The translations under genes were made by a program, and so were the position numbers. A DNA stretch of 64,000 nucleotides from Candidatus Poseidoniaceae archaeon (GTDB lineage: Archaea > Thermoplasmatota > Poseidoniia > Poseidoniales > Poseidoniaceae): NCBI GenBank assembly GCA_938030705.1, contig CALHIR010000010.1:47130-111129 (forward strand), given 5' to 3'. Positions 606 to 63,598 of the stretch are shown in pieces. Within the stretch, counting starts at the first letter, position 1. Every line of letters starts with the position of its first letter. A model generated the notes under the pieces. That model did no database searches. It was not told where the DNA came from and saw nothing but the letters and a program-made list of their open reading frames with translations.

Positions 606-5273
<4,668 letters not shown>

Positions 5274-5277
<4 letters not shown>

Positions 5278-25495: not shown

Positions 25496-26599
25496 TCAAT
25501 CATCCAAATCCATGAGACGAGGGCTCGGGTCCATGAACGAGCGTGGCATGCCCCGAATGTTTCGTTTGGTTCCTTCGTGGTCGGTGGTCATGACCGAGAG
25601 CAGTTCCATGAATTCTTTGAGCAAGTTGACCATGCCAAGGTGGCTATTTTCGGGTTGAACAATCCGTTCACAGGCTGCCGTGACGGTGCCGCTGGAGTTC
25701 AACGTTTCAATGAGCATTTCAACGCGAGGGCCACTTTTGAACACCCCTCGCTTCTTATTGGGGTCGAGCAAGGACGTCAGAAGGGCTTCGTCGCCATCCT
25801 TGGATGCCTTTTTCAAAAATGTTGAAATTTTTCGTTGCTCAATATAGGCGCCAACGATGGGTCGCAGTGATGGTTCTAAACTTTCGACCAAGGCTCGTTC
25901 TAATCGGTAAGCCAGTTCAGCGCTCGGGTCAAGCATTTCCTTGATGCTTGCTTTCGGAAAACCTTTTCTCGACACCAAGAGGGTGAAGCCGTGCAAAGGC
26001 GGCGGGACAAATCGCTCCCGGTTATTTTCGGTTTGATCTCGCTGCAGCCCCAAGGTGTGGCGGCGTCCTTTCATGCGATGACCTGCGTGAATGGCCCGAG
26101 GCACGATGAACCCGTCCAGATGACCTTGGAGTCGTTGTTCCTCTATCCAGGGCCAAATGTCTTCGTCATCCAGTTCCTTGACCAACGCCCCTGCTCCTAT
26201 CCTGTCAGCGACCTCATCGATGGTTTCCAACACAATATCCGGGCGCATACGTCGCGTTTGCCGGCGAAGAAGTTCATGCTCACACATAACGAGAGCGCCT
26301 TGTTTCAAGTATTCGGGTTTGTCATCAGCAACCAAAACCCAGGTTGGCTCTTTTCGTGGCAGAAGCCCGGCTATGGTCAGGCCGTCAACATCGTGATTGG
26401 CCCAATCAAAGGCACTCATGGCGACGATATCGCCAATACCATCTCGAAGTGTTTGAATGGCCGTTTCAATGTGGGGGAGTTGCTTGAGGCGGAGGTCACG
26501 ATGTTTGCCATGCGTGCCCACAGCTCGCTCGATTTGAAGGCGAACGCCATCGTTCCTTGACGGCGTGGTGAGAATCACGAGATACTCACTTTTCTCCAT
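25496..26599 (-). CDS. hypothetical protein (weak phosphoesterase-like motifs)
   Basis: 367-aa core of ORF 25496..27088. The upstream 163 codons overlap the well-supported GGPP synthase gene and were trimmed to MEKSEYLVIL. GDIVAMSAFDWANHD and HAGH are suggestive but not diagnostic of a metallophosphoesterase. Confidence 0.4.
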   Translation of the reverse strand: MEKSEYLVILTTPSRNDGVRLQIERAVGTHGKHRDLRLKQLPHIETAIQTLRDGIGDIVAMSAFDWANHDVDGLTIAGLLPRKEPTWVLVADDKPEYLKQGALVMCEHELLRRQTRRMRPDIVLETIDEVADRIGAGALVKELDDEDIWPWIEEQRLQGHLDGFIVPRAIHAGHRMKGRRHTLGLQRDQTENNRERFVPPPLHGFTLLVSRKGFPKASIKEMLDPSAELAYRLERALVESLEPSLRPIVGAYIEQRKISTFLKKASKDGDEALLTSLLDPNKKRGVFKSGPRVEMLIETLNSSGTVTAACERIVQPENSHLGMVNLLKEFMELLSVMTTDHEGTKRNIRGMPRSFMDPSPRLMDLDD

Positions 26600-26680
26600 C
26601 GGTTCACCTCGGTTAGGGTCGCCCCTTACATGTCGTGGGCGTGGACGACCGGTTAAGAAGCCCACCCTCGTGGCAAGGTC

Positions 26681-27664
26681 GTGGGCAGCAGTCTTGAGGT
26701 GCTTCAATCGGCACTGGAATCCATGCGTGAGGAAGTCAACCAGGCTCTGCGTGACCTCATCAGCGACGAACTCGAGGCCGGGGCGGGTGAGGTGGCCCTT
26801 GAAGCAGGGCGTGTCTTGAATGCGGGTGGAAAACGGCTTCGTCCGATTTTGTTCCTGTTGGCTTACCAACTGGCGGGCGGCAAAAACAGAGAAGAGGTCA
26901 TGCCACTGGCGTTGGCCTTCGAACTCATTCACACCGCTACGCTTGTTCATGATGATATCAACGACGAAGCAAAACAGCGTCGAGGAATTCCAACCATCCA
27001 CGCTCAAGCAGGCCAGGCCAAAGCCGTCATCGCTGGCGATTGGCTTTTCGTCCAAGGCTTCGGCCTTGGTGGCCGCTACTCCGCACAAATTGTCTCCATT
27101 ATCGCTCGTTGTTGTGCGAACATTGCCGTCTCAGAATTCCATCAACTTGACCATGTGTTGAACCTTGCGACTTCGCCCGAAGATTACCTTTCCATCGTCC
27201 GTGGAAAAACTGCCGGGCCGTTCGCTTCAGGATGCTACAGTGCTGGTTTGGTCGCAGGTTTGGAGGACGAGAAAGCCAAGGCGCTGGAACGGTTCGGAAT
27301 GGAACTGGGTGTGGCCTTCCAGCTCGTGGATGACCTCTTGGATCTGCGCGGTGATGAACGCATGGGCAAGCCCCGAGGTGCCGATGTTTACGAAGGCAAG
27401 ATGACCCTCCCGTTAATTCACGCGCTGACCCTCTCTCACGGGCAACACCGTGAACGCCTGTCCCAAATTCTCGAAGATTTCTCGGATGAGAAGTTCGATG
27501 ACCTGATGGTGCTGCTGGAGCGTTCAGACAGCATGGAATACGCTGAAATTTTGGTCCGAACCCATCTTGAACGGGCGCAAGCAGAACTGCATCGGTTCCC
27601 CGATAGCGAGGCCAAAGATTTGATGCTGCTCATCACAAACATTGTCAAAGATCGGCATGCTTGA
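26681..27664 (+). CDS. idsA: geranylgeranyl diphosphate synthase (polyprenyl synthetase)
   Basis: 327 aa. First aspartate-rich motif (LVHDDINDEAKQRRG) and second (FQLVDDLLD). GGKRLRP N-terminal motif. Confidence 0.9.
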   Translation: MGSSLEVLQSALESMREEVNQALRDLISDELEAGAGEVALEAGRVLNAGGKRLRPILFLLAYQLAGGKNREEVMPLALAFELIHTATLVHDDINDEAKQRRGIPTIHAQAGQAKAVIAGDWLFVQGFGLGGRYSAQIVSIIARCCANIAVSEFHQLDHVLNLATSPEDYLSIVRGKTAGPFASGCYSAGLVAGLEDEKAKALERFGMELGVAFQLVDDLLDLRGDERMGKPRGADVYEGKMTLPLIHALTLSHGQHRERLSQILEDFSDEKFDDLMVLLERSDSMEYAEILVRTHLERAQAELHRFPDSEAKDLMLLITNIVKDRHA

Positions 27665-27673
27665 GGTGAATCC

Positions 27674-28819
27674 ATGGCCGTGAGTGAAATCGAACACCGC
27701 CAAGTCATCGTTATAGGTGCAGGTCCGGCCGGGAGCGCTGCGGCCCAACGCTTGGCAGAAGCCGGCATTGACGTGCTGGTGTTGGAGCGACGCGCCATCG
27801 TCGGTAATCCCGCCCAGTGCGGGGAATGCATCCCCAACTGGGGTGAGGTCATTGGGACGTTCAAGCATCTTGAGGACCACACATGGTTGAAGACGTATTT
27901 TGACTTCCCCGAACGGCTTCGCCTCCACCGTCTGGACAACATGCGGGTGTTTCTTCCCTCGGGGAAATCCTACAACTTCGCCTTGGATGCCTTTGCTGGC
28001 CACCGTCTTCAATTCGACGGGTACCTCGCCGATAAAGCGGTCAGAGCCGGTGCCGAAGTGCGCATCTCGACAATGTTGAAGCGTATTCAACAACAACGAA
28101 AAGCCAATCGAGAATTGTTGGTTACCAACGAGGGGAGGTTCACCTGCGACTACCTCATCGACGCTTCTGGTAGCCTGGCTCACGTAGGTCGACTCAAGCA
28201 CGGGCAAGACCCAGCGTTCCGTCCCGACGACCAAGTGCCAACCGTCTATGCTCAGGTCAAGGGCGAGGTGCCCGAAACCTTTGATGTGTTTCTGGGGTCC
28301 GTCGCCCCGTCTGGTTATGCGTGGATCATCCCCAAAGGACCCGGGTTTGCCAACGTTGGGTTGGGCGTACGTGCTGGAAAACTCAAAGGCGATTTGAAAG
28401 GGCATTTGGAACGATTTTGTGCCGATCTTAATCTCGAAATTGTCTCGTTTGGCGGTGGCTGGATTCCAATGGGGGGGCCGGTAAAACAGATGGTGGACGG
28501 AAACACGCTCGCCGTAGGTGACGCCGCAGGTTTGGTCATGCCAAGCAACGGCGGGGGGATCAGTCAAGCCATTATTTCGGGTTGTTTTGCAGCCGAAGCC
28601 ATCGTTGACAACATGAGGAAGAACACACCGCTCTCGTCTTACGAAGACAGGGTGCGCGCATCGATGGGCCCAGCGCTCAAGAATTCCCTCCGCAGCAAGA
28701 ACATGGGCTATGCCTTCATGCGAGGCGACGTTTTGACGGAGTTGATTCTTCGTTGCCTCGGTCCCATCGGTGGCATCAAGCGAGCCATGGAGTGCGAGAA
28801 ACCTCTCTGGTTGTTTTGA
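27674..28819 (+). CDS. geranylgeranyl reductase (digeranylgeranylglycerophospholipid reductase family)
   Basis: 381 aa. FAD-binding VIVIGAGPAGSAAA and a conserved GDAAG motif. Adjacent to idsA. Confidence 0.85.
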   Translation: MAVSEIEHRQVIVIGAGPAGSAAAQRLAEAGIDVLVLERRAIVGNPAQCGECIPNWGEVIGTFKHLEDHTWLKTYFDFPERLRLHRLDNMRVFLPSGKSYNFALDAFAGHRLQFDGYLADKAVRAGAEVRISTMLKRIQQQRKANRELLVTNEGRFTCDYLIDASGSLAHVGRLKHGQDPAFRPDDQVPTVYAQVKGEVPETFDVFLGSVAPSGYAWIIPKGPGFANVGLGVRAGKLKGDLKGHLERFCADLNLEIVSFGGGWIPMGGPVKQMVDGNTLAVGDAAGLVMPSNGGGISQAIISGCFAAEAIVDNMRKNTPLSSYEDRVRASMGPALKNSLRSKNMGYAFMRGDVLTELILRCLGPIGGIKRAMECEKPLWLF

Positions 28820-28891
28820 ACCACGCCAAACGTTTGGTTCGAGGCCGTGATTCATCGGTGTGTTCAAGTGATTTGACAGGATGGGAATTTC

Positions 28892-29383
28892 ATGCGAGGG
28901 CTGATGCGACGGGATGAAGATGCCGTTAGCCCCGTGATTGCGACCGTCCTCCTTCTCGCCATCACCGTCGTGCTTTCCAGCATGGTGTTCGTTTTGATGC
29001 AAGGGGCCTTGACCACGGTTGAGAAATCGGCCCCACAGGCAACCGTCAGCGTGCGGGCGCTCGACAACGGTTTCCACGTCGTGAGGATCACCAGCCTTGA
29101 CCAATCCATTGACCCCGCCCGTCTTCAATTCGATTTGCTCCCTGCGAACGTGACCGAATCCCTTCTCATCCGCGGTCAAGTTTCTGATGCAGATGTTTAC
29201 GGCGTTATCGGGACGGAAATCTCGTTCCATGATAGGGATGCAGGCTATTCGGTCACCCAAGGTGATTACTTCGTCATCGATTCCGAAACGATTGGGGCTG
29301 ACGACGGCACCTGGCGTTTCCGTCTGGTTGAGAAGACATCAGATACGCTCATTGTTGATGTTTCGCTCCCTGCGATGGCCTGA
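28892..29383 (+). CDS. archaeal type IV pilin-like protein (class III signal peptide, DUF1628-like)
   Basis: 163 aa. N-terminus RRDEDAVSPVIATVLLLAITVVLSSMVFVL matches the archaeal prepilin pattern (A-VSPVI-hydrophobic). Confidence 0.7.
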   Translation: MRGLMRRDEDAVSPVIATVLLLAITVVLSSMVFVLMQGALTTVEKSAPQATVSVRALDNGFHVVRITSLDQSIDPARLQFDLLPANVTESLLIRGQVSDADVYGVIGTEISFHDRDAGYSVTQGDYFVIDSETIGADDGTWRFRLVEKTSDTLIVDVSLPAMA

Positions 29384-31890: not shown

Positions 31891-33909
31891 TCAGCCATGA
31901 CGCCCAAAGTGGTGGTCCAAACTATCAATGGAGATTCGCAACGATGTCGGGCGTCCATGGACGCAGGCCCAAGGGTTTTGAATTCGGCGCATGTCATCAA
32001 GGAGGCGTCGCATTTCGGGTAAGGAAAGCGATTCATTGGCTTTCACGGCCCCTCGACAGGCGTTCATGAAGGCGATGTGGTCTTTCTTTGCTTCCATGGT
32101 TTCAAGCGGGCCACCATCAAGCGCTAAATCTTGAAGCAAATCGAGAAGGAAGGGTTTGATTTGGTCGCCCCCGAGGAGTTGCGGCGAGGCATTCAACACC
32201 CACATCTCTTTCTCTTTTGAGAGGTGGAACCCAAGGTCATGGAGCCGCTCATGATGTGCATCGACGAGGGCGGATTGCCTCGCATCGAGGTTCAGAGGAA
32301 GCGGAGAGAGCCGTTGTTGTGGCTCCCACGCCTGGCCACTGTGCCGCAATCGTTCGTATCGGACACGCTCGTGCAGGGCGTGCTGGTCGATGAGGAGCAA
32401 CTCGTCTTCAGCTTGGACAAGAATGTAGGAGTCCGCAAATTGTGCCAAAGGTTCCATGTGCGGAAGATCGTTCAAGTCTCCTTCGAGAGGGGCTTCTTCG
32501 CTCGGCCTTGACGTGGACCCAGTACCTGCATGTCGGTGCAGGGCGCGTTCAGCAGAAGAAAGAGGTGCAGCCATTGGTGCTGAAGGAAGGTTTGGGAGAA
32601 CCCCTTGTCCAAGAGGGGACGCTGACACAGGTCGCTCCTTTTCCGCCTTTGCTTGTTCTTCCGCTTCTTGGCCAACGAGGTTCAATTGCCGACCGGCAGC
32701 AAGCGCCCAGGCCGGTGGCCGAACGGAAGCTGTGGCGGTCTTGCCCTCCGGTTTTGCCGTCATGCCCGCCGCCGTTGAGATGGAGGCGTCAACCGTGGTT
32801 TCAACAGGCGGTCCGGTAAAGTAAGTTTCAACTGGTTTAGCAATCGATCCGCCTGAGAGTCCTTGAAGGCCAGGGATTTCACCCGTCGCATCGGGCTCGG
32901 TCGGCACGGCTTCAAGGGTGTAGGCAATGGCTCGTTCAAGCCGCTCCAAAACTCGCCAAGAATGACGAAGACGCACTTCCCGCTTCGTTGGATGGACGTT
33001 CACGTCCACTTCCTCGGGAGGGCATTGGAGGTTCACCACGGCCAACGGGTGGCGGCCTTGCATAAGGCGCGTTTTGTAGCCTCGGCGGATGGCTTGCAAA
33101 AACGGGCCTGCGCCCACAGGACGGCGGTTGATGAGAACGTGGATGTCGTCTCCCTTTCCTCGCGTGATGTCGGGTGTGCTGATCCACCCGCTCCAGCGTT
33201 CCTCGCCGGGGGCCTCCTCATCTTCGGGGGGTAATTTGAGTTCAACCAATTCAGTGGCCTGCGCACCCATGATGTCGTAAAGTCGGTCAAGCATGTTTTC
33301 CGTCGCCGGAACATTGAGCAGTGTTCTGCGTTCAGTTTTCAGGTGGAAACCGCAAGTTGGATGGGCAAGTGCATGGTCAACAACCACGTCCACGATTCGG
33401 GCCGTTTCTGTTTCTGGTCGTCGTTGGAACGCGAGTCGCGCAGGGGTGTTTTGAAAGAGATGTTCGACCGAAATGATGGTTCCGTTGGCCATTCCGTAGG
33501 GCTGGGCTTCGGACTTAATTCCGTCCTCCATCACGATGCTTGCACCCTGCGAACCTTCGGGTTTACTGGCTATTTTGAGGCGAGAGACCATACCAATGCT
33601 GGCCAACGCTTCACCCCGAAAACCGAGCGAGAGAATGGAGGCCAAGTCTTCTTTGCTGCTGAGTTTGGAGGTGGCGTGCCGGTCAAGGGCCAGGGAAAGG
33701 TCAGCTTGAGCAATCCCGCTGCCGTTGTCTTCAACCTCAAGACGGTCAAATCCGCCCCGTTCAACGGTGATGACAATGGAAGTTGAGCCCGCATCGAGGC
33801 TGTTTTCAATCAACTCTTTGACCACCTGTGCGGGGCGTTCGACAACTTCACCCGCTGCAATGAAACCGATGGTGGCTTCATCCAGCTGCCTGATTTTGTC
33901 TGGCTTCAT
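31891..33909 (-). CDS. mutL: DNA mismatch repair protein MutL
   Basis: 672 aa. GHKL ATPase N-terminus (VVKELIENSLDAGST, DNGSGI, GFRGEALASI). Pro/Ala-rich linker. Dimerisation C-terminus. Confidence 0.9.
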   Translation of the reverse strand: MKPDKIRQLDEATIGFIAAGEVVERPAQVVKELIENSLDAGSTSIVITVERGGFDRLEVEDNGSGIAQADLSLALDRHATSKLSSKEDLASILSLGFRGEALASIGMVSRLKIASKPEGSQGASIVMEDGIKSEAQPYGMANGTIISVEHLFQNTPARLAFQRRPETETARIVDVVVDHALAHPTCGFHLKTERRTLLNVPATENMLDRLYDIMGAQATELVELKLPPEDEEAPGEERWSGWISTPDITRGKGDDIHVLINRRPVGAGPFLQAIRRGYKTRLMQGRHPLAVVNLQCPPEEVDVNVHPTKREVRLRHSWRVLERLERAIAYTLEAVPTEPDATGEIPGLQGLSGGSIAKPVETYFTGPPVETTVDASISTAAGMTAKPEGKTATASVRPPAWALAAGRQLNLVGQEAEEQAKAEKERPVSASPLGQGVLPNLPSAPMAAPLSSAERALHRHAGTGSTSRPSEEAPLEGDLNDLPHMEPLAQFADSYILVQAEDELLLIDQHALHERVRYERLRHSGQAWEPQQRLSPLPLNLDARQSALVDAHHERLHDLGFHLSKEKEMWVLNASPQLLGGDQIKPFLLDLLQDLALDGGPLETMEAKKDHIAFMNACRGAVKANESLSLPEMRRLLDDMRRIQNPWACVHGRPTSLRISIDSLDHHFGRHG

Positions 33910-36560
33910 GTTCGCTCCTCCATGTCATGTTTCAGGGCATAAAGGACCTCGAGGGCTTGACGCGGGCTCAGATCGTCAACATTGGTCTCTTGCAGGCGTT
34001 GCATCATTCGCTCAACACTTGGCGACAACGCAGGCGGCGTTGGCGAAGAAGTTTTCATGGCTGCAGCTGCGAAATACCCCATCAGGCTGGCTTGGCCCGA
34101 ATCTCTTGATTGTGGTGCGCCGTGTTCACCCGCTTTTGCACCTCCTGCTTGCTGCTCAAGGAAGGCGAGTAAGTCGCTTGCACGCTCCACTACGCTTCGG
34201 GGTAGGCCAGCCAAAGCAGCGACTTGAACACCGTATGAATCATCGCATGGCCCATCTGCAACGGTGTGGAGGAAGCGAAGTTTCCCGTCGACTTGAGCCA
34301 CTTGGACATGGACATTGCACAACCCGTTTACCTCGCCCTCCAGGCCGATGAGTTGGTGGTAATGAGTGGCAAAAAGCGTCCGGGCACCGATTCTTGAGCA
34401 GATGTCCTCCGTGACGGACCACGCAATGGAAAGGCCGTCGAAAGTGGAGGTGCCTCGTCCAATCTCGTCCAACAGGACCAGGGAACGCTGCGTGGCCCGC
34501 TTGAGGATGTGGGCTACCTCGATCATTTCCATCATGAAGGTCGAACGCCCCCGCTTGAGGTCGTCACTTGCTCCTACCCGTGTAAAAATCCGGTCAACCA
34601 ATCCCACCTTGGCTTGCTTGGCGGGAACAAAACATCCGGCCTGTGCAAGAACAGTGACCAAGGCCACCGTCCGAAGGTAGGTGGATTTCCCACCCATATT
34701 GGGGCCCGTGATGAGCAGAAAACTCCGCTTTTGGTTCATCGAAACATCGTTGGGGACAAAACCGGACTGAGTTTCCAACACGGGGTGGCGAGCGCCATCA
34801 AGTTGGATTTGATGCTTGTCCGTGATTTCGGGTTTGGTCCAATTACGTTCCCTGCTCACCGATGCGAAGCACTGCAACACATCGATGGAAGCGACCCGTC
34901 GGGCGATGTCAGCCAAGGTCGCCGCCTGAGTGCCGCAATAGGTGCGAAGTTCGAGGAACCGGCGGTACTCAAGTTCTTTCAGTTTTGAATCGGCGGTGAG
35001 CAACAAGTCATCCCGCTCAACCAATTCCTCCGTAGTGTAGCGAGAGCCGTTGGTCAATTGTTGCTTCCTTCGCCACGTGTTTGGAACTTTTTCGATGTGC
35101 GCTTGGGTGACCTCGATGAACCACCCCACTTGTCGGTTGTTCTTGACCTTGAGCGAAGGGATAGCCAATTCCTCTCTGAGCCGTTGTTCAAGGTTGGTGA
35201 ACCAAGCCTTTCCTTCTGACGTGACGCTTCGCAAGCGGTCAACTTCCTCGTCCACCCCGGCTCGTAGGAGTCCTCCGTCCCGCAAACCGAGGGGAGGATG
35301 TTCGTCCAAGGTGTTGTGAATGGTCTCCCTCATCTCTTCAAGTTGGTCGAGGCCTTCACTGAGGTGGATGAGGAGTGGGTCCTGGCTGTCATTGCACCAT
35401 TGCACGAGGGCGGGCATCCGCTCAAGGGCATGGGCTGTGGCGACCAAATCCCTTGCATTACTGCGTTGGTAAGCGAGTTGGGTGGCCAATCGCTCCATGT
35501 CTCGGATTCCCTTCAAGGAGGTGCGCATGCCGTCCAACCGGCGAGCCGATCGTGTCAGGGTCGCCACGGCTTGATGGCGCGTTTGAATGGCCTCCGTGTT
35601 GGAAAGCGGATGCAAGAGCCAGGTTTTCAGAAGCCGCCTCCCCATGGCGGTTCGACATCGGTTGAGGGTGGAAAGCAAACTTCCGTCGTATTCCCCTGCC
35701 AAGGTTGACGTCAATTCCAAATTCCGTAGGGTGGTTTGGTCCAACAGCAGGTGGCCTTGTTCTTCCAGAAGTTCAACGTCTTGAAGGGGGATGTCTTGGC
35801 GCATGTGAACCGTCGCGAGGTAGTCAGCTGCGAGGCCTGTAGCCGAAATGGCCAACGGAGCATGGTCCAGGTCCAAGTGCCCCAAATCCGCCACATCAAG
35901 CATGCTTCGCAATCGTTCTTCTCGTTTTGCTTGGCTGAGTTGATGTTGGCTCACCATGGTAGACTCCAAGCGGGGAAAGAGGGGGGCGAGGTGGTCGTTT
36001 TCGGCGTCTTTTGGTGAGATCACAAGCTCGCTTGGTTGCCATCGGAGAAGGTCATCTTGGAGGCGAGTGAATCGTTCGGGCCCCTCGTGTGAACTCGCCC
36101 ACGCCTTCCCGGTGGATGCATCAAGCACGGCGAGGCCCAAGGCATCTGGGCCCAGCACAACACCGGCGAGCAGGGACTGCTCATCACCTTCCAACAACCC
36201 CTCCTCATAGAGGCTGCCGGGCGTGTAAACTCTGGTCGCCACTCGCTCCAGTAATTTGGCTCCAGGTCTCAATTCTTCTTCTTGCTCTGCTACCGTCACT
36301 TTGTAGCCAGCCCGGAGCATGGTGCGCAGATGGTCTTCAAGCCCGTGCCATGGGAAGCCCGCCATGGGGATGGGTTGGTCGGCGTTTTTGTCTCGAGAGG
36401 TCAGCGAAAGGCCAAGCACATCCGCCGCTACTTCTGCATCGTCGTGAAAGAGTTCGTAGAAATCTCCCATTCGGAAGAAGAGAACCGTGTCAGGATGCTG
36501 TTCTTTGATGTCAAAGAACTGGTCCATCATTCCTCTTTTTGACATGGTTGCACCCTCCAT
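33906..36560 (-). CDS. mutS: DNA mismatch repair protein MutS
   Basis: 884 aa. Mismatch-binding N-terminus (FFRMGDFYELF), Walker A (ITGPNMGGKSTYLR), DE (VLLDEIGRGTST), HTH C-terminus. 4-nt overlap with mutL. Confidence 0.92.
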   Translation of the reverse strand: MEGATMSKRGMMDQFFDIKEQHPDTVLFFRMGDFYELFHDDAEVAADVLGLSLTSRDKNADQPIPMAGFPWHGLEDHLRTMLRAGYKVTVAEQEEELRPGAKLLERVATRVYTPGSLYEEGLLEGDEQSLLAGVVLGPDALGLAVLDASTGKAWASSHEGPERFTRLQDDLLRWQPSELVISPKDAENDHLAPLFPRLESTMVSQHQLSQAKREERLRSMLDVADLGHLDLDHAPLAISATGLAADYLATVHMRQDIPLQDVELLEEQGHLLLDQTTLRNLELTSTLAGEYDGSLLSTLNRCRTAMGRRLLKTWLLHPLSNTEAIQTRHQAVATLTRSARRLDGMRTSLKGIRDMERLATQLAYQRSNARDLVATAHALERMPALVQWCNDSQDPLLIHLSEGLDQLEEMRETIHNTLDEHPPLGLRDGGLLRAGVDEEVDRLRSVTSEGKAWFTNLEQRLREELAIPSLKVKNNRQVGWFIEVTQAHIEKVPNTWRRKQQLTNGSRYTTEELVERDDLLLTADSKLKELEYRRFLELRTYCGTQAATLADIARRVASIDVLQCFASVSRERNWTKPEITDKHQIQLDGARHPVLETQSGFVPNDVSMNQKRSFLLITGPNMGGKSTYLRTVALVTVLAQAGCFVPAKQAKVGLVDRIFTRVGASDDLKRGRSTFMMEMIEVAHILKRATQRSLVLLDEIGRGTSTFDGLSIAWSVTEDICSRIGARTLFATHYHQLIGLEGEVNGLCNVHVQVAQVDGKLRFLHTVADGPCDDSYGVQVAALAGLPRSVVERASDLLAFLEQQAGGAKAGEHGAPQSRDSGQASLMGYFAAAAMKTSSPTPPALSPSVERMMQRLQETNVDDLSPRQALEVLYALKHDMEERT

Positions 36561-59442: not shown

Positions 59443-60792
59443 TCAAACTGCGGGGAGGAGGCCGACGCGTGCCAAGGCCCCCCATACGGGGTCAAGGAAT
59501 CCTGGCAGGAAACGGTGTCGAAGGTAAACGGCTGCTGCCAGCGAGATTTTTTGCACCTTGTTGAGTTTCACTCGCTTGGTGAAGACGTCGCCTTGTTGCT
59601 TCTCGATTTGGCGGAGAATCTTATCGTAAAAGGCGATCATGGCTGCGGGAGAATATCGTGTGCGACGGGGGAGGAGGGGGAGCAAGGCTCGAGCTTCCTC
59701 AAGGTAGGTGCGTGCACGAGATGCGTAATTTCTGCAGTACGGTTCCCAGTGCTTGTTGAGGACGATTTCACCTTCGCTGAGTTCGCCCTCGGTCATGCCA
59801 TTGCTCTCCAATTCATCGAGGGGAAGGTACACGCGGTCCCTCTGAATGTCTTCTCCGACATCTCTGAGGACATTGGTCAGTTGCATGAAGATGCCCCAAG
59901 ATTCTGCATATTTTCGGGCCATGGGGTTGTCGTATCCATAGACTTCGATGCACATCAACCCCACAACAGAAGCGACACGGTAGCAGTAGACGTAGAGTTC
60001 GTCAAAGGTTCGATATCGGTTGTTGTAGAGGTCGTCCTCCATGCCGGAGATCAGGTCATCGAAGACCTCTCGGGGGATGTTGTAGCGTTGCACGGTATCT
60101 TTCAAGGCGAGGAACACCGGGTCGGTGGAGTGAACATCACCGTAGCAGGTGGAGAGTTTCTTCCGGAAGAAAAAGAGTTGAGTGATTTTGTTGAGGTAGG
60201 CCTCTTCGTTGAGGATGGTTCCCCGGTCTTGCAAGGATTCGAGCTGATTCCGGTAAGCGGTTGCCTCCGGGTCCATCTCGCCCTTACTTCCGGGGAAACG
60301 GTCGGCCCAATCACCATCAGCAATGTCGTCTGCCCTACGGCAAAAAGCGTAGATGGCGCACATGGCTGAACGCTGTTCGTCGGGCAGGTACTTGAACGAG
60401 TGGTAAAAATTACCCGCTTCTCGCATCGTCAATTCCTCGCAGTATCGGTAGGCCAGCTTGTGCAGTTCTGCAGGTGGTTTCTCCGACCAAATCGGGGCAT
60501 CGAGGTGGGCGAAGGGGTCGACCAGTTCGTCGGTGTCGCCGACGATACCGATGAACGAGGCACCTTCACGAAGCGCCTCCATGGCGGTTACGCTGACGGC
60601 TTTGACCGCATCTCTGGCGAGGGTGACACCGGCCCTGAGGCGGTCGAGCGTGGTTGGGGGGCGGACTTCTTCTTCGCCGTTCCTGCTCGCTGCATTGCCC
60701 TTGAGCGGGAAGAGCAAATCAAGCGGTTTGCGGCGTTCCAGCATCCTAACCGGTCCTCCCTTGCATCCCTTGTTTATGAGACCTCGCCTCAT
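59443..60792 (-). CDS. squalene/phytoene synthase family protein (HpnD/CrtB-like)
   Basis: 449 aa. YAFCRRADDIADG (first DxxxD region), YCYRVASVVG, NVLRDVGEDIQRDRVYLP (second Asp-rich region). N-terminal extension of about 100 aa. Confidence 0.8.
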   Translation of the reverse strand: MRRGLINKGCKGGPVRMLERRKPLDLLFPLKGNAASRNGEEEVRPPTTLDRLRAGVTLARDAVKAVSVTAMEALREGASFIGIVGDTDELVDPFAHLDAPIWSEKPPAELHKLAYRYCEELTMREAGNFYHSFKYLPDEQRSAMCAIYAFCRRADDIADGDWADRFPGSKGEMDPEATAYRNQLESLQDRGTILNEEAYLNKITQLFFFRKKLSTCYGDVHSTDPVFLALKDTVQRYNIPREVFDDLISGMEDDLYNNRYRTFDELYVYCYRVASVVGLMCIEVYGYDNPMARKYAESWGIFMQLTNVLRDVGEDIQRDRVYLPLDELESNGMTEGELSEGEIVLNKHWEPYCRNYASRARTYLEEARALLPLLPRRTRYSPAAMIAFYDKILRQIEKQQGDVFTKRVKLNKVQKISLAAAVYLRHRFLPGFLDPVWGALARVGLLPAV

Positions 60793-60867
60793 CAGCGTGG
60801 GTCTGATTCGGTGTTCACCTCTATGTGAGTTCCTATTTACAATGAATAATTTATTCTATAGAAACCA
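60793..60867 (-). promoter_or_regulatory. AT-rich intergenic element, candidate promoter (TATA-like) for the downstream squalene/phytoene synthase gene and/or terminator of the upstream one
   Basis: tatttacaatgaataatttattctatagaaacc is the most AT-rich stretch in the window, located between two same-strand genes. Confidence 0.25.
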
Positions 60868-61935
60868 TCATTTGTCGCGATTCTTTTCGAGCAGGCGCTT
60901 CACGCCACCCGGTATGAGGAGCGCACGCAGGAGTTTACGTGCATAGGTTTTCATCTCATCTCGGGTGACTTTGATTCGTTCCTCTGAATTGAGAATATTC
61001 CCCTCACGAAGCAGTGTGACCGTTCGTTGACCAACCAAGACAGGGAGCATGCAGGACGCCTTGAGGCGGAATTGGGTTTCCGGGATCATCCGAATGTAGG
61101 CCGTCGCAGCTTCGAGATGTTCATTGGTCAGGTCCAAGTATCGATCATAAAGCCCACGAAAGGTCGCAAGGTTTCCATCATCAAGCAAATCTTCAGGATT
61201 GAGGCCGATGGCTTCTAAGGAGGATTGCGGGATATAGCATCGTCCGAATCGGAGGTCTTCAGGAATATCTCGAAGGATGTTGATCATTTGCAGAGCCTTA
61301 CCAAATCGAATGCCACGTTCCATGAACAGTGCTTCCTCTTCTGGAGGGAGTTTCATGAGGTGAGCCAATGACATCTTGGTCCAAAAAACCCCGACGCATC
61401 CAGCGACCCGAAAGGTGTAATCATCAAGTTCTTCCTCCGTCCTCAACGCTGAGATTTTTCCACCTTCGTTGGCTGGACCGAAGCGCTCAAGATCAAGAAG
61501 TTGGCCACCAACGATGACATCAAGGCATTCCAGCATGCGTTCCTTGTCTTCGGCGTTATAGATCTGGAGGCCTTCAACGACATCGCTGACATTACGGAGT
61601 AGTTCCGCCTCGTGCGGGTTCGTTTGTATCTCTGCCAGGTCACTCAAATCAGGGAGTTCACTCCCTCGACCTTGCACGGCGTCGTTGTAGGCTTTGAGGT
61701 GCTCGGAAAGCAAAGTTGTCTCTCCTACTTTCGAATCAGCTATGGTATCTGCGACCCTCGCAAGGAGGTACAGGAGTCCGGTTTGCCCTCGTGTTTTCTT
61801 TGGAAGATACTTCAACGTGGGATAAAAAGATCGAGAGGTAGTTTCCAAGAGCCGGTCGATTTTTTCATTCACGAAAACCGACAACTCAATCTCCTCCATT
61901 ACGCCCACAAGTGTCTTCTCCATGAAGATATTCAT
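60868..61935 (-). CDS. squalene/phytoene synthase family protein (HpnC-like paralog)
   Basis: 355 aa. YLLARVADTIADS, YTFRVAGCVGVFWTKM, NILRDIPEDLRFGRCYIP. Confidence 0.8.
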   Translation of the reverse strand: MNIFMEKTLVGVMEEIELSVFVNEKIDRLLETTSRSFYPTLKYLPKKTRGQTGLLYLLARVADTIADSKVGETTLLSEHLKAYNDAVQGRGSELPDLSDLAEIQTNPHEAELLRNVSDVVEGLQIYNAEDKERMLECLDVIVGGQLLDLERFGPANEGGKISALRTEEELDDYTFRVAGCVGVFWTKMSLAHLMKLPPEEEALFMERGIRFGKALQMINILRDIPEDLRFGRCYIPQSSLEAIGLNPEDLLDDGNLATFRGLYDRYLDLTNEHLEAATAYIRMIPETQFRLKASCMLPVLVGQRTVTLLREGNILNSEERIKVTRDEMKTYARKLLRALLIPGGVKRLLEKNRDK

Positions 61936-62047: not shown

Positions 62048-63598
62048 ATGAACTGCGGCGCATGCGGTGAACAAATTCCAGCAGACAGTATGTTCTGCCC
62101 CGAATGTGGAGCCCGGCAAGACAATTCCGTCGCCGGAGGGTTCGCTCCAACACCCAACCAAAGCATTCCAACTTTCCCTCCGCAGCAGCGAACATTTGAC
62201 CCCGTTTCTGGGGATGCCCAGCGAATGCAACAAGAGAGCAACATGAATCAGATGGGTCAGTTGCCCCAGGATATGCTCCAAGGGATGGCTCAGGGCTTGC
62301 AGCATCAACAAAACCTCCCGCCCGGTACCTATCCTCAACAACCGCTGCAAGGGAACTTCCCTCCGAACCAACTTCCGCCGAACCAACTTCCCCCAAACCA
62401 GTTCCCTCCGAACCAATTTCCTCCCAATCAATTTCCTCCCAATCAATTTCCTCCGCAACAAGGCAATGTTGTGCCGGCTCCTTCTCAAAAGCCCATGAGC
62501 GATCTGCCCCCCCTTCAGCGTGGGCCCTCGATCGCCAGTGGAACTCCGCCAGCAACCGGCAACGTGTCTCCAATGGCTGCCGGCGGCACCAAAGTTGCCC
62601 ACAACCCCTCAAACTCTCCAACTGACGCTATGGTGAACAGGCTCGCAGAGGCCGAACGGGCCGTCAAAGATGAACGGCGAAATCAGTGGCTTTCGATGAA
62701 CCAATCTCCAGCATCTTCCGTCTTGGCAAACCTTGGTGGAGGAGAACTCCCTGCTCACCTCCGTGGAGGTGGAGAGGCCGCCAACCCTGCAGCAGACATC
62801 ATGGCTGGCGCCCTTGGTGCGCCTTCTAGCGATGCACCCAGCGAAGCGCTTCTTCGTCGCATCTCGGAAGTCGCTGTACGCCGTGTGGCACGGAAGCGAG
62901 GCGTTGCGGTTGAGGCGCCACAAAGCAAATTGAGCGGCGACATGTTTGACGTCAACATCACCTATGTGGACGATGGGCGTGTTTTGGATACGCCCGAGGA
63001 CTTGACGCAAGCCTTTGAACATGCCATTCAAACAGAACTCGCTTTGAAAGGGTTTGACCTGTCATGTAACATCACCATGTTCCGTTCAAAGGATGGGAAA
63101 ACGGAAAAAATCGGTGAAGAAGAAGCCGAAGAGGACATGTTTGCCTGTGAAATTTGCGACGGACTCGTGAAAGAAAGCGATCCTGTCTGCCCACACTGTG
63201 GCGCCATGTTCGAAGAAGAGGAAGATGAAGCAGAGCAAGCCCCTCCCTCCAAATCGGGCCCTCCCGGTCCTAAGAAAGGCGGTCCTCCGGGGCCGTCCAA
63301 AGGCGGCCCTCCCGGTCCGAAGAAAGGCGGCCCTCCCGGTCCCAAGAAAGGCGGCCCTTCGGGGCCGTCCAAAGGCGGTCCTCCCGGCCCCAAGAAAGGC
63401 GGTCCTCCCGGTCCTAAGAAAGGCGGCCCTCCTGGCGGTCCGAAGAAGAGCGGCCCTCCCGGCGGTCCGAAGAAGAGCGGTCCTCCTGGCGGTCCGAAGA
63501 AGAGCAGTCCTCCTGGCGGTCCGAAGAAGAGCGGTCCTCCCGGCGGCCCGAAGAAGAGCGGTCCTCCCGGTGGACCCAAGCGTGGTCCACCAAGGTGA
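62048..63598 (+). CDS. double zinc-ribbon protein with Pro/Gln pentapeptide repeats and a Gly/Pro/Lys-rich repeat tail
   Basis: 516 aa. N-terminal CGACG...CPECG, internal CEICD...CPHCG. (F/L)PPNQ x7. C-terminal GPPGPKKG / GPPGGPKKS repeats, about 14 copies. Confidence 0.6.
   Translation: MNCGACGEQIPADSMFCPECGARQDNSVAGGFAPTPNQSIPTFPPQQRTFDPVSGDAQRMQQESNMNQMGQLPQDMLQGMAQGLQHQQNLPPGTYPQQPLQGNFPPNQLPPNQLPPNQFPPNQFPPNQFPPNQFPPQQGNVVPAPSQKPMSDLPPLQRGPSIASGTPPATGNVSPMAAGGTKVAHNPSNSPTDAMVNRLAEAERAVKDERRNQWLSMNQSPASSVLANLGGGELPAHLRGGGEAANPAADIMAGALGAPSSDAPSEALLRRISEVAVRRVARKRGVAVEAPQSKLSGDMFDVNITYVDDGRVLDTPEDLTQAFEHAIQTELALKGFDLSCNITMFRSKDGKTEKIGEEEAEEDMFACEICDGLVKESDPVCPHCGAMFEEEEDEAEQAPPSKSGPPGPKKGGPPGPSKGGPPGPKKGGPPGPKKGGPSGPSKGGPPGPKKGGPPGPKKGGPPGGPKKSGPPGGPKKSGPPGGPKKSSPPGGPKKSGPPGGPKKSGPPGGPKRGPPR
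62360..62457 (+). repeat. 15-nt coding tandem repeat (ccgaaccaa[ct]ttcc-like), about 7 copies
   Basis: Direct reading of the sequence; encodes PPNQ(L/F). Confidence 0.8.
63256..63590 (+). repeat. 24/27-nt coding tandem repeats (ggcggtcctcccggtccgaagaaa-like), about 13 copies
   Basis: Direct reading; encodes GPPGPKKG and then GPPGGPKKS units. It generates long artefactual ORFs on the opposite strand. Confidence 0.8.

Follow-up and report, generated by a model that had tools for sequence, protein, structure and literature searches.

The stretch of DNA studied here, referred to as the window, comprises 64,000 nucleotides (nt) from a Candidatus Poseidoniaceae archaeon. At positions 59443..61935 it carries two genes, designated A and B, that lie head-to-tail on the minus strand with B upstream of A and that form a candidate locus for squalene synthesis. 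The products of both genes matched the Pfam domain SQS_PSY (PF00494; 250.5 bits for A and 155.5 bits for B). The two open reading frames (ORFs) reported in a preliminary description were confirmed at the coordinates given in Table 1, and their lengths of 449 and 355 amino acids (aa) hold for the maximal ORFs but not for the proteins. Translation of A starts at M17 (ATG 60744), where the conserved sequence MLERRKPLDLL begins (14 homologues) and which has GGGAGG 10 nt upstream. For B, three start candidates were considered (TTG 61884, giving 338 aa and with GGAGGAG 6 nt upstream, ATG 61899, and ATG 61923); the alignment of homologues, most of them 338-351 aa long, indicated that TTG 61884 is probably the true start.

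The proteins A and B shared 24% identity and fell into different subfamilies, so that the term paralogs, applied to them earlier, is true at the superfamily level only. Both Asp-rich regions that had been attributed to each gene were found (DDIAD and DVGED in A, DTIAD and DIPED in B); the motifs were intact in the two copies, and the pair did not correspond to a simple duplication of a CrtB-type phytoene synthase. The closest homologues of A and of B belonged to Candidatus Poseidonia or Poseidoniaceae (Marine Group II, MGII; class Poseidoniia). When the window was compared with its relatives, the ratio of non-synonymous to synonymous substitution rates (dN/dS) was 0.026 (~0.03) for A and 0.041 (~0.04) for B, with dN around 0.05 and synonymous sites near or beyond saturation. 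These low values indicated that both genes are maintained by purifying selection.

Table 1. Position of the two genes, their motifs, the elements of the spacer between them, and isoprenoid genes elsewhere in the window.
Feature	Position	Strand	Remarks
Gene A, putative divergent HpnD-type presqualene diphosphate synthase	59443..60744	-	433 aa from the conserved start; maximal ORF 59443..60792, 449 aa
Second Asp-rich motif of A, DVGED	59848..59862	-	Translation and alignment
First Asp-rich motif of A, DDIAD (DDxxD type, as in HpnD, HpnC, CrtB, and CrtM)	60316..60330	-	Four of the five residues invariant and one nearly so in 14 homologues
Phe133 of A, at the position of CrtM Phe26 (chain-length-determining)	60394..60396	-	Alignment
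Intergenic spacer, candidate hpnD promoter/operator and leader	60745..60867	-	123 nt with the A start at 60744
Shine-Dalgarno-like GGGAGG	60755..60760	-	Precedes ATG 60744
Conserved leader AGGTCTCATAAA	60773..60784	-	At -40 in 38 of 86 loci
16-nt element GTAAATAGGAACTCAC, GTRA-N8-TYAC, imperfect inverted repeat, candidate operator	60825..60840	-	
Perfect palindrome TTCTATAGAA, TATA-like	60854..60863	-	4 nt past the sqs stop codon
Gene B, predicted Sqs-type squalene synthase	60868..61935	-	Maximal ORF of 355 aa; probable start TTG 61884
Second Asp-rich motif of B, DIPED	61255..61269	-	Residues 223-227; D223 and D227 invariant in 16 Poseidoniaceae homologues
Tyr173 of B, counterpart of human SQS Tyr171	61417..61419	-	Hidden Markov model alignment to human SQS chains; invariant column
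First Asp-rich motif of B, DTIAD (DTxxD, Sqs-subfamily signature)	61735..61749	-	Residues 63-67; invariant in 16 homologues
Polyprenyl diphosphate synthase	26681..27664	+	PF00348, 206.3 bits; 33% identity to Paracoccus CrtE (tblastn)
Geranylgeranyl-reductase-family flavoprotein	27674..28819	+	Not of the flavoprotein family of HpnE; 31 kb from the pair

Subfamily assignment of genes B and A

Gene B presented the features of squalene synthases (Sqs, or SQS for the eukaryotic enzymes). A first motif of the DTxxD type separates Sqs from the other subfamilies, which have DDxxD (PMC7306690). The residues of the SRSF flap (S34-R35-S36-F37), Tyr56, and Tyr173 were invariant in 16 homologues of B, and an alignment based on hidden Markov models placed both tyrosines at Y73 and Y171 of human SQS. 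We take the latter, from mutagenesis of the rat and human enzymes, to be the catalytic tyrosine of the first half-reaction. The profile built from B homologues aligned over its full length with eukaryotic SQS, including the fungal and trypanosomal enzymes. In neighbour-joining (NJ) trees, B and its homologues, a Burkholderia protein, a haloarchaeal Sqs-like protein, and eukaryotic SQS formed an Sqs clade apart from HpnC, HpnD, CrtB, and CrtM (99% bootstrap, with 99% also for the union of B and the Burkholderia Sqs-like protein, in the tree of 28 sequences; 97-99% in that of 136 sequences). The AlphaFold model of B (predicted local distance difference test, pLDDT, of 80.7) displayed the squalene-synthase fold, including the C-terminal helices that are absent from CrtM. 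Its best matches in the PDB were human, T. cruzi, and A. flavus SQS (template modelling, TM, scores of 0.70-0.73 over ~330 columns; 0.71-0.73 for human SQS); the top 13 matches corresponded to human or T. cruzi SQS (TMq 0.65-0.73), with values of 0.55-0.58 for CrtM.

The best relatives of B in the plasmid collection were proteins of Burkholderia, Cupriavidus, and Caballeronia annotated as 'farnesyl-diphosphate farnesyltransferase' (38-42% identity over 85% of the length of B). These Burkholderiaceae proteins share with B the motif ADTIAD, the SRSFY flap, the second motif GKALQM.N.LRD, a soluble nature, a size of ~340 aa, and a genome that also contains hpnD; they differ from it in that the host of B is archaeal, and this Sqs clade is known from sequence. 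Eukaryotic SQS (human FDFT1, T. cruzi, and A. flavus) resembles B in the fold, the DTxxD and DxxED motifs, the SRSF flap, and the counterparts of Y73 and Y171; it differs in identity (16-21% only), in a C-terminal membrane anchor that B lacks, and in the human residues F288 and Q293, for which B shows no evident counterparts. The pairing of HpnD with Sqs also appears to occur in bacteria having a squalene-hopene cyclase. On a megaplasmid of Mycetohabitans rhizoxinica (L098, 3052..5923), we observed hpnD directly followed by a squalene-hopene cyclase gene, with no hpnC or hpnE nearby.

The preliminary description had proposed HpnC as the identity of the second gene, which was not borne out. B scored 60.8 bits on the HpnC model (TIGR03464; cut-off of 250.45), contained the motifs SRSFYPT and NILRD instead of the ENFPVA and NxWQD present in all seven HpnC sequences, and fell outside the HpnC clade (93-94% support, NJ). 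By score, motifs, and clade, gene B is a predicted Sqs-type enzyme and not an HpnC.

The assignment of gene A was less direct. Its best NCBIfam match was HpnD (TIGR03465, 237.7 bits, split in two by an insertion of ~45 aa), and its best match in the plasmid collection was a Streptomyces HpnD located within an hpnC-hpnD-hpnE cluster; identity to Streptomyces and Cupriavidus HpnD was of 30-33%. The best sequence matches in the PDB were CrtM-like and 'phytoene synthase' chains. As a classifier of A the best NCBIfam match was dropped, genuine CrtB and CrtM also scoring best on the HpnD model. On the CrtB models, A obtained 191, 129, and 110 bits as against cut-offs of 550, 500, and 480, respectively. 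At the position of CrtM Phe26, where the substitution F26A alters product size (PMC4510654), A has Phe; the residue there is bulky in the C30 enzymes (F in CrtM, F, M, or I in HpnD, L or I in Sqs), unlike the S, T, or A of the four CrtB references. Published trees place Poseidoniia sequences in HpnD (PMC7306690).

Among the 89 nearest full-length representatives of A at the 50% cluster level, 45 matched HpnD at E<=1e-83 and 13 matched any CrtB model. The closest relative outside the 50% cluster of A itself (P0241, 47% identity) was a solitary gene on a contig of 3 Mb, and another relative, P0253, lay on a contig of 2.9 kb; the surroundings of both were uninformative. Many of the 89 relatives (P0245-P0330) were proteins of 570-720 aa with two domains (~600 aa) that matched A in several stretches. 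The boundaries of the two SQS_PSY domains could be set in 19 relatives; in NJ trees their N-terminal halves belonged to the HpnC clade, and their C-terminal halves lay among sequences of the HpnD type. These two-domain relatives look like natural HpnC-HpnD fusions.

The protein A also contained a conserved N-terminal extension of ~100 aa (ORF residues 17-115), predicted with low model confidence to form a long amphipathic helix, and a highly conserved insertion of ~45 aa after the DDxxD motif (ORF residues ~160-205; GDWxDRFPGS...QLFFFRKKLSTCY). Both occur as well in lineages of the hpnE-hpnC type. Mean pLDDT of the AlphaFold model of A was 61.3, the N-terminal 87 residues remaining below 50.

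The sequence scores of A are ambiguous when taken alone and genomic context is decisive: A may be classed as a divergent HpnD because its orthologues share a locus with hpnE and hpnC genes that pass the equivalog cut-offs. Orthologues of A occupy the third place of such hpnE-hpnC-hpnD clusters, directly downstream of the other two genes, and two of them gave 237 and 204.5 bits on the HpnD model. Thus, A (the 449-aa ORF) accounts for the HpnD-type gene suspected earlier. A shares with the HpnD of the HpnCDE pathway the DDxxD and DVGED motifs and the best family match; unlike bacterial HpnD, it is ~150 aa longer and its HpnC and HpnE partners are replaced by sqs. With CrtB and CrtM it has in common the superfamily and the two Asp-rich motifs, but it lacks the desaturase or cyclase neighbour of CrtB systems. 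The phylogenetic placement of both genes, suggested as a check in the preliminary description, settled B in Sqs and the Poseidoniia HpnC-like genes in HpnC, but NJ trees did not separate A between HpnD and CrtB.

The locus across Poseidoniia

One genome per GTDB species was scanned, yielding 428 contigs that encode a relative of A, and the best 80, annotated as Poseidoniales, Poseidoniaceae, or with broader archaeal names, were examined. All 80 kept hpnD. An orthologue of B (70-89% identical) was located directly upstream of A in 74 of them, co-oriented in 68 and inverted in six species that constituted a single clade in the tree of HpnD orthologues. In the remaining six, B was absent and its slot was occupied by an amine oxidase gene (hpnE) together with a third SQS_PSY gene (hpnC), flanked by a zinc-ribbon protein on one side and by A on the other, with acyl-CoA dehydrogenase and WD-like genes downstream as in sqs-type loci. 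The arrangement with hpnE-hpnC directly upstream of an A orthologue (70-84% identical) was found in ten loci, most of them with the same flanking genes, the A orthologues of the metagenomic contigs among the hpnE-hpnC loci being ~71-73% identical; it was also seen upstream of a more distant orthologue (42% identical) in a further Poseidoniia-like genome. The HpnE-like neighbours reached 323.7, 309.2, and 341.5 bits (equivalog cut-off of 283.05, NCBIfam) and the HpnC-like neighbours 282.9, 308.3, and 298.7 bits (equivalog cut-off of 250.45); in two loci beyond these ten (L101 and L102), HpnE and HpnC were past the cut-offs. The Poseidoniia HpnC-like proteins joined the reference HpnCs with 93-94% bootstrap (NJ), and their comparison with the sqs gene gave no significant match.

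In the HpnD-orthologue tree, eight of the ten hpnE-hpnC-type loci were basal and the sqs-type loci formed a large derived group, within which the other two (L079 and L080) were nested. The simplest reading of tree and synteny together is that the ancestral operon was hpnE-hpnC-hpnD and that sqs replaced hpnE and hpnC in situ, with hpnD left where it was. In locus L093 (5715..7960), hpnE and hpnC were each split by a frameshift and hpnD was intact; the assembly was polished ('pilon'), and the splits represent either gene decay or sequencing error.

The neighbour of B in the window (62048..63598, plus strand) encodes a protein of 516 aa with two zinc-ribbon motifs, Q/P-rich PPNQ(L/F) repeats, and ~14 C-terminal repeats of the GGPPGPKK type. 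It was the divergent neighbour on the sqs (or hpnE) side in 76 of the 80 related species.

The GC content of the spacer between sqs and hpnD was 37% for 60793..60867 and 26% for 60825..60867, compared to 50-56% in the two genes, in agreement with the AT-richness noted previously for 60793..60867. Of 86 related upstream regions, 42 contained the TCTATAGA core of the palindrome listed in Table 1 (positions -116 to -131; 0.3 expected from shuffles) and 49 contained GTRA-N8-TYAC (~10 in shuffles). The latter was also found upstream of hpnD in loci of the hpnE-hpnC type, for example as GTAAGTTTTTACTTAC in L085. These spacer elements were kept although synonymous sites are saturated between species. 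A scan of the locus with Rfam gave no match. A candidate internal promoter/operator specific for hpnD is plausible within the spacer.

The flavoprotein HpnE, which the preliminary description had named as partner of the pair, was searched for by tblastn with three bacterial references against the related loci and with one Poseidoniia HpnE against the window and the loci. No HpnE was detected in the 64-kb window or in sqs-type loci, and it was found only in hpnE-hpnC loci. Since B is of the Sqs type and would use NADPH, such a flavoprotein would not be required. CrtN and CrtI were likewise not detected in the window by tblastn; a search for CrtI, CrtN, and CrtY that covered the window and, in ~90 related loci, the sequence up to 10 kb from the locus gave no match. 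None of the related loci examined showed crtN next to hpnD, an arrangement that has been reported for some Poseidoniia.

The geranylgeranyl diphosphate (GGPP)-type synthase and the geranylgeranyl reductase flavoprotein described earlier are indeed present in the window (Table 1), and the polyprenyl synthase could possibly supply farnesyl diphosphate (FPP) or GGPP to the pair. Two ORFs antisense to this region (25496..27088, 530 aa, and 27524..29260, 578 aa, both on the minus strand) lacked any Pfam match and overlapped the polyprenyl synthase, the geranylgeranyl-reductase-family gene, and an archaeal pilin gene (28892..29383, plus strand); they are likely to be spurious shadow ORFs. Elsewhere, the window contained archaeal housekeeping genes (eIF2-alpha, RLI, L10e, PAC2, TyrRS, the archaeal pilin, and others). 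This archaeal genome also presented DNA gyrase B/A and MutS/MutL of bacterial type (624..5277, plus strand, and 31891..36560, minus strand).

Proposed function and other explanations

We consider it probable that the locus is a squalene-synthesis pair of mixed ancestry, formed by a bacterial-type Sqs and a retained HpnD, in which Sqs has displaced hpnE-hpnC. Squalene, already suspected in the preliminary description, is most likely the product, as predicted from the family assignments. B, as a soluble bacterial-type Sqs, would condense two FPP into presqualene diphosphate (PSPP) and would then convert PSPP into squalene by rearrangement and reduction with NADPH. In the bacterial HpnCDE pathway, HpnD makes PSPP from two FPP (Pan et al., 2015, as cited in PMC7306690). 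A would still carry out this reaction, and its PSPP could feed B or another use. The ancestral Poseidoniia locus would have been hpnE-hpnC-hpnD, sqs having taken the place of hpnE and hpnC while hpnD was kept. The literature suggests two possible fates for the squalene formed, a role as membrane lipid or conversion by the CrtN desaturase that has been reported from Poseidoniia.

Several points weigh against this interpretation. A complete Sqs in B would leave the strict retention of A without explanation, and the Poseidoniia enzymes and their Burkholderia-type Sqs relatives are known from sequence alone. B obtained 41.1 bits on the NCBIfam squalene synthase model TIGR01559, with a cut-off of 286.75; the Burkholderia and haloarchaeal Sqs-like proteins failed this model as well (82.6 and 108.1 bits, respectively), which indicates that it misses the prokaryotic Sqs-like proteins tested. 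Two residues of human SQS implicated in its second half-reaction, F288 and Q293, aligned to Ser294 and Val299 of B in a gapped, poorly alignable region. As for A, its 237.7 bits are below the HpnD equivalog cut-off of 278.6, and the HpnD model was also the top sub-threshold match of Thermus CrtB, of a Natrialba CrtB-like protein, and of CrtM. In NJ trees, A grouped with Streptomyces HpnD with 38% support on an unresolved backbone, outside the reference CrtB and CrtM branches.

The retention of hpnD would be accounted for by an obligate hybrid route in which A is the sole PSPP synthase and B does only the work of HpnC plus HpnE, from PSPP and NADPH to squalene; we regard this as unlikely. It fits the replacement in place of exactly hpnE and hpnC, never of hpnD, the adjacency of sqs and hpnD in 74 of 80 species (co-oriented in 68 of the 74), a constraint on A at least as strong as that on B (dN/dS of 0.026 vs. 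0.041), and the lack of evident F288 and Q293 counterparts in B. The combination of HpnD and Sqs without HpnC or HpnE recurs in Verrucomicrobia and in beta- and gamma-proteobacteria (PMC7306690, PMC9907078); Mycetohabitans has hpnD next to the cyclase gene shc without hpnC or hpnE, and among plasmid-borne genes those nearest to B come from Burkholderiaceae. However, B keeps all the first-half-reaction features checked (Asp-rich motifs, SRSF flap, and counterparts of Y73 and Y171). Characterized Sqs enzymes are self-sufficient, which counts against a B limited to the second step. Moreover, hpnCDE could be replaced in E. coli by just one gene, an sqs of cyanobacterial origin (PMC9907078). The inversion of sqs with respect to hpnD in one clade of six species shows that strict co-transcription is not required, and a promoter-like conserved region precedes hpnD. 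It is similarly doubtful that HpnD and Sqs make up a distinct, obligate third route to squalene, with PSPP coming from HpnD and this clade of Sqs-like enzymes limited to rearranging and reducing it with NADPH, or, as a variant, that the extended HpnD of Poseidoniia has a second product, other than squalene, through which the gene stays under selection. If true, a third route would explain the presence of hpnD beside sqs in Poseidoniaceae and of hpnD and sqs without hpnC or hpnE in Verrucomicrobia and Burkholderiales.

A different identity of A, as a phytoene synthase (CrtB) providing a C40 carotenoid or retinal precursor for proteorhodopsin, with B as an unrelated neighbouring squalene synthase, appears quite improbable. 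Homologues of A appear as 'phytoene synthase' in JGI and in some NCBI records, MGII have proteorhodopsin and need retinal (PMC6461757, PMC6336850), a GGPP-type synthase is present in the window, and the sub-threshold HpnD score, the behaviour of genuine CrtBs on the HpnD model, and the NJ position of A would all be compatible with it. Against it stand the orthologues of A in hpnE-hpnC-hpnD clusters whose other two members are past the equivalog cut-offs, the lack of crtI, crtY, or crtN in the window and within 10 kb in the ~90 related loci, the distance from the CrtB cut-offs, the bulky Phe, typical of C30 enzymes, at the CrtM F26 position, and the published phylogeny; in addition, an annotated beta-carotene cleavage enzyme is absent from most MGII. 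The pairing of HpnC and HpnD with HpnE encoded elsewhere, as first proposed, is hardly credible. The two genes both contain SQS_PSY with intact Asp-rich motifs, are adjacent and co-oriented like the usual hpnC-hpnD, and A is HpnD-like; yet the score, motifs, and clade of B (split from HpnC with 97-99% bootstrap) refute it at the level of sequence, true HpnC proteins without significant match to sqs exist in Poseidoniia, and hpnE was absent wherever sqs was present in the loci examined.

The essence of the mixed pair of Sqs and HpnD was already known, and the families to which the two genes belong, as ordinary representatives, are known as well. Poseidoniia sequences appeared in the HpnD and Sqs trees of Santana-Molina et al. 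(2020; PMC7306690), where lateral acquisition of Sqs was inferred and HpnCDE and Sqs were described as occurring together; Poseidoniia with hpnD and sqs that have lost hpnC and hpnE were reported in that study and in a later one (Santana-Molina et al., 2022; PMC9907078), the latter reporting that Poseidoniia carry CrtN and leaving the role of isolated HpnD unexplained. To this we add that sqs and hpnD are adjacent in the majority of the Poseidoniaceae species studied here, in contrast to the 2020 paper (PMC7306690), according to which HpnD has no Sqs nearby, that the displacement took place at the same locus with conserved flanks, and that hpnD is under strong purifying selection.

Marine Group II are among the most abundant archaea of the surface ocean and are uncultured, their lipid and pigment chemistry being inferred from genes. 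The locus indicates synthesis of squalene, a C30 isoprenoid unusual for archaea, which can modulate membranes and supply the 'squalene route' by which CrtN leads to C30 carotenoids. Poseidoniaceae thus offer a natural test case for the role of HpnD beside a complete squalene synthase.

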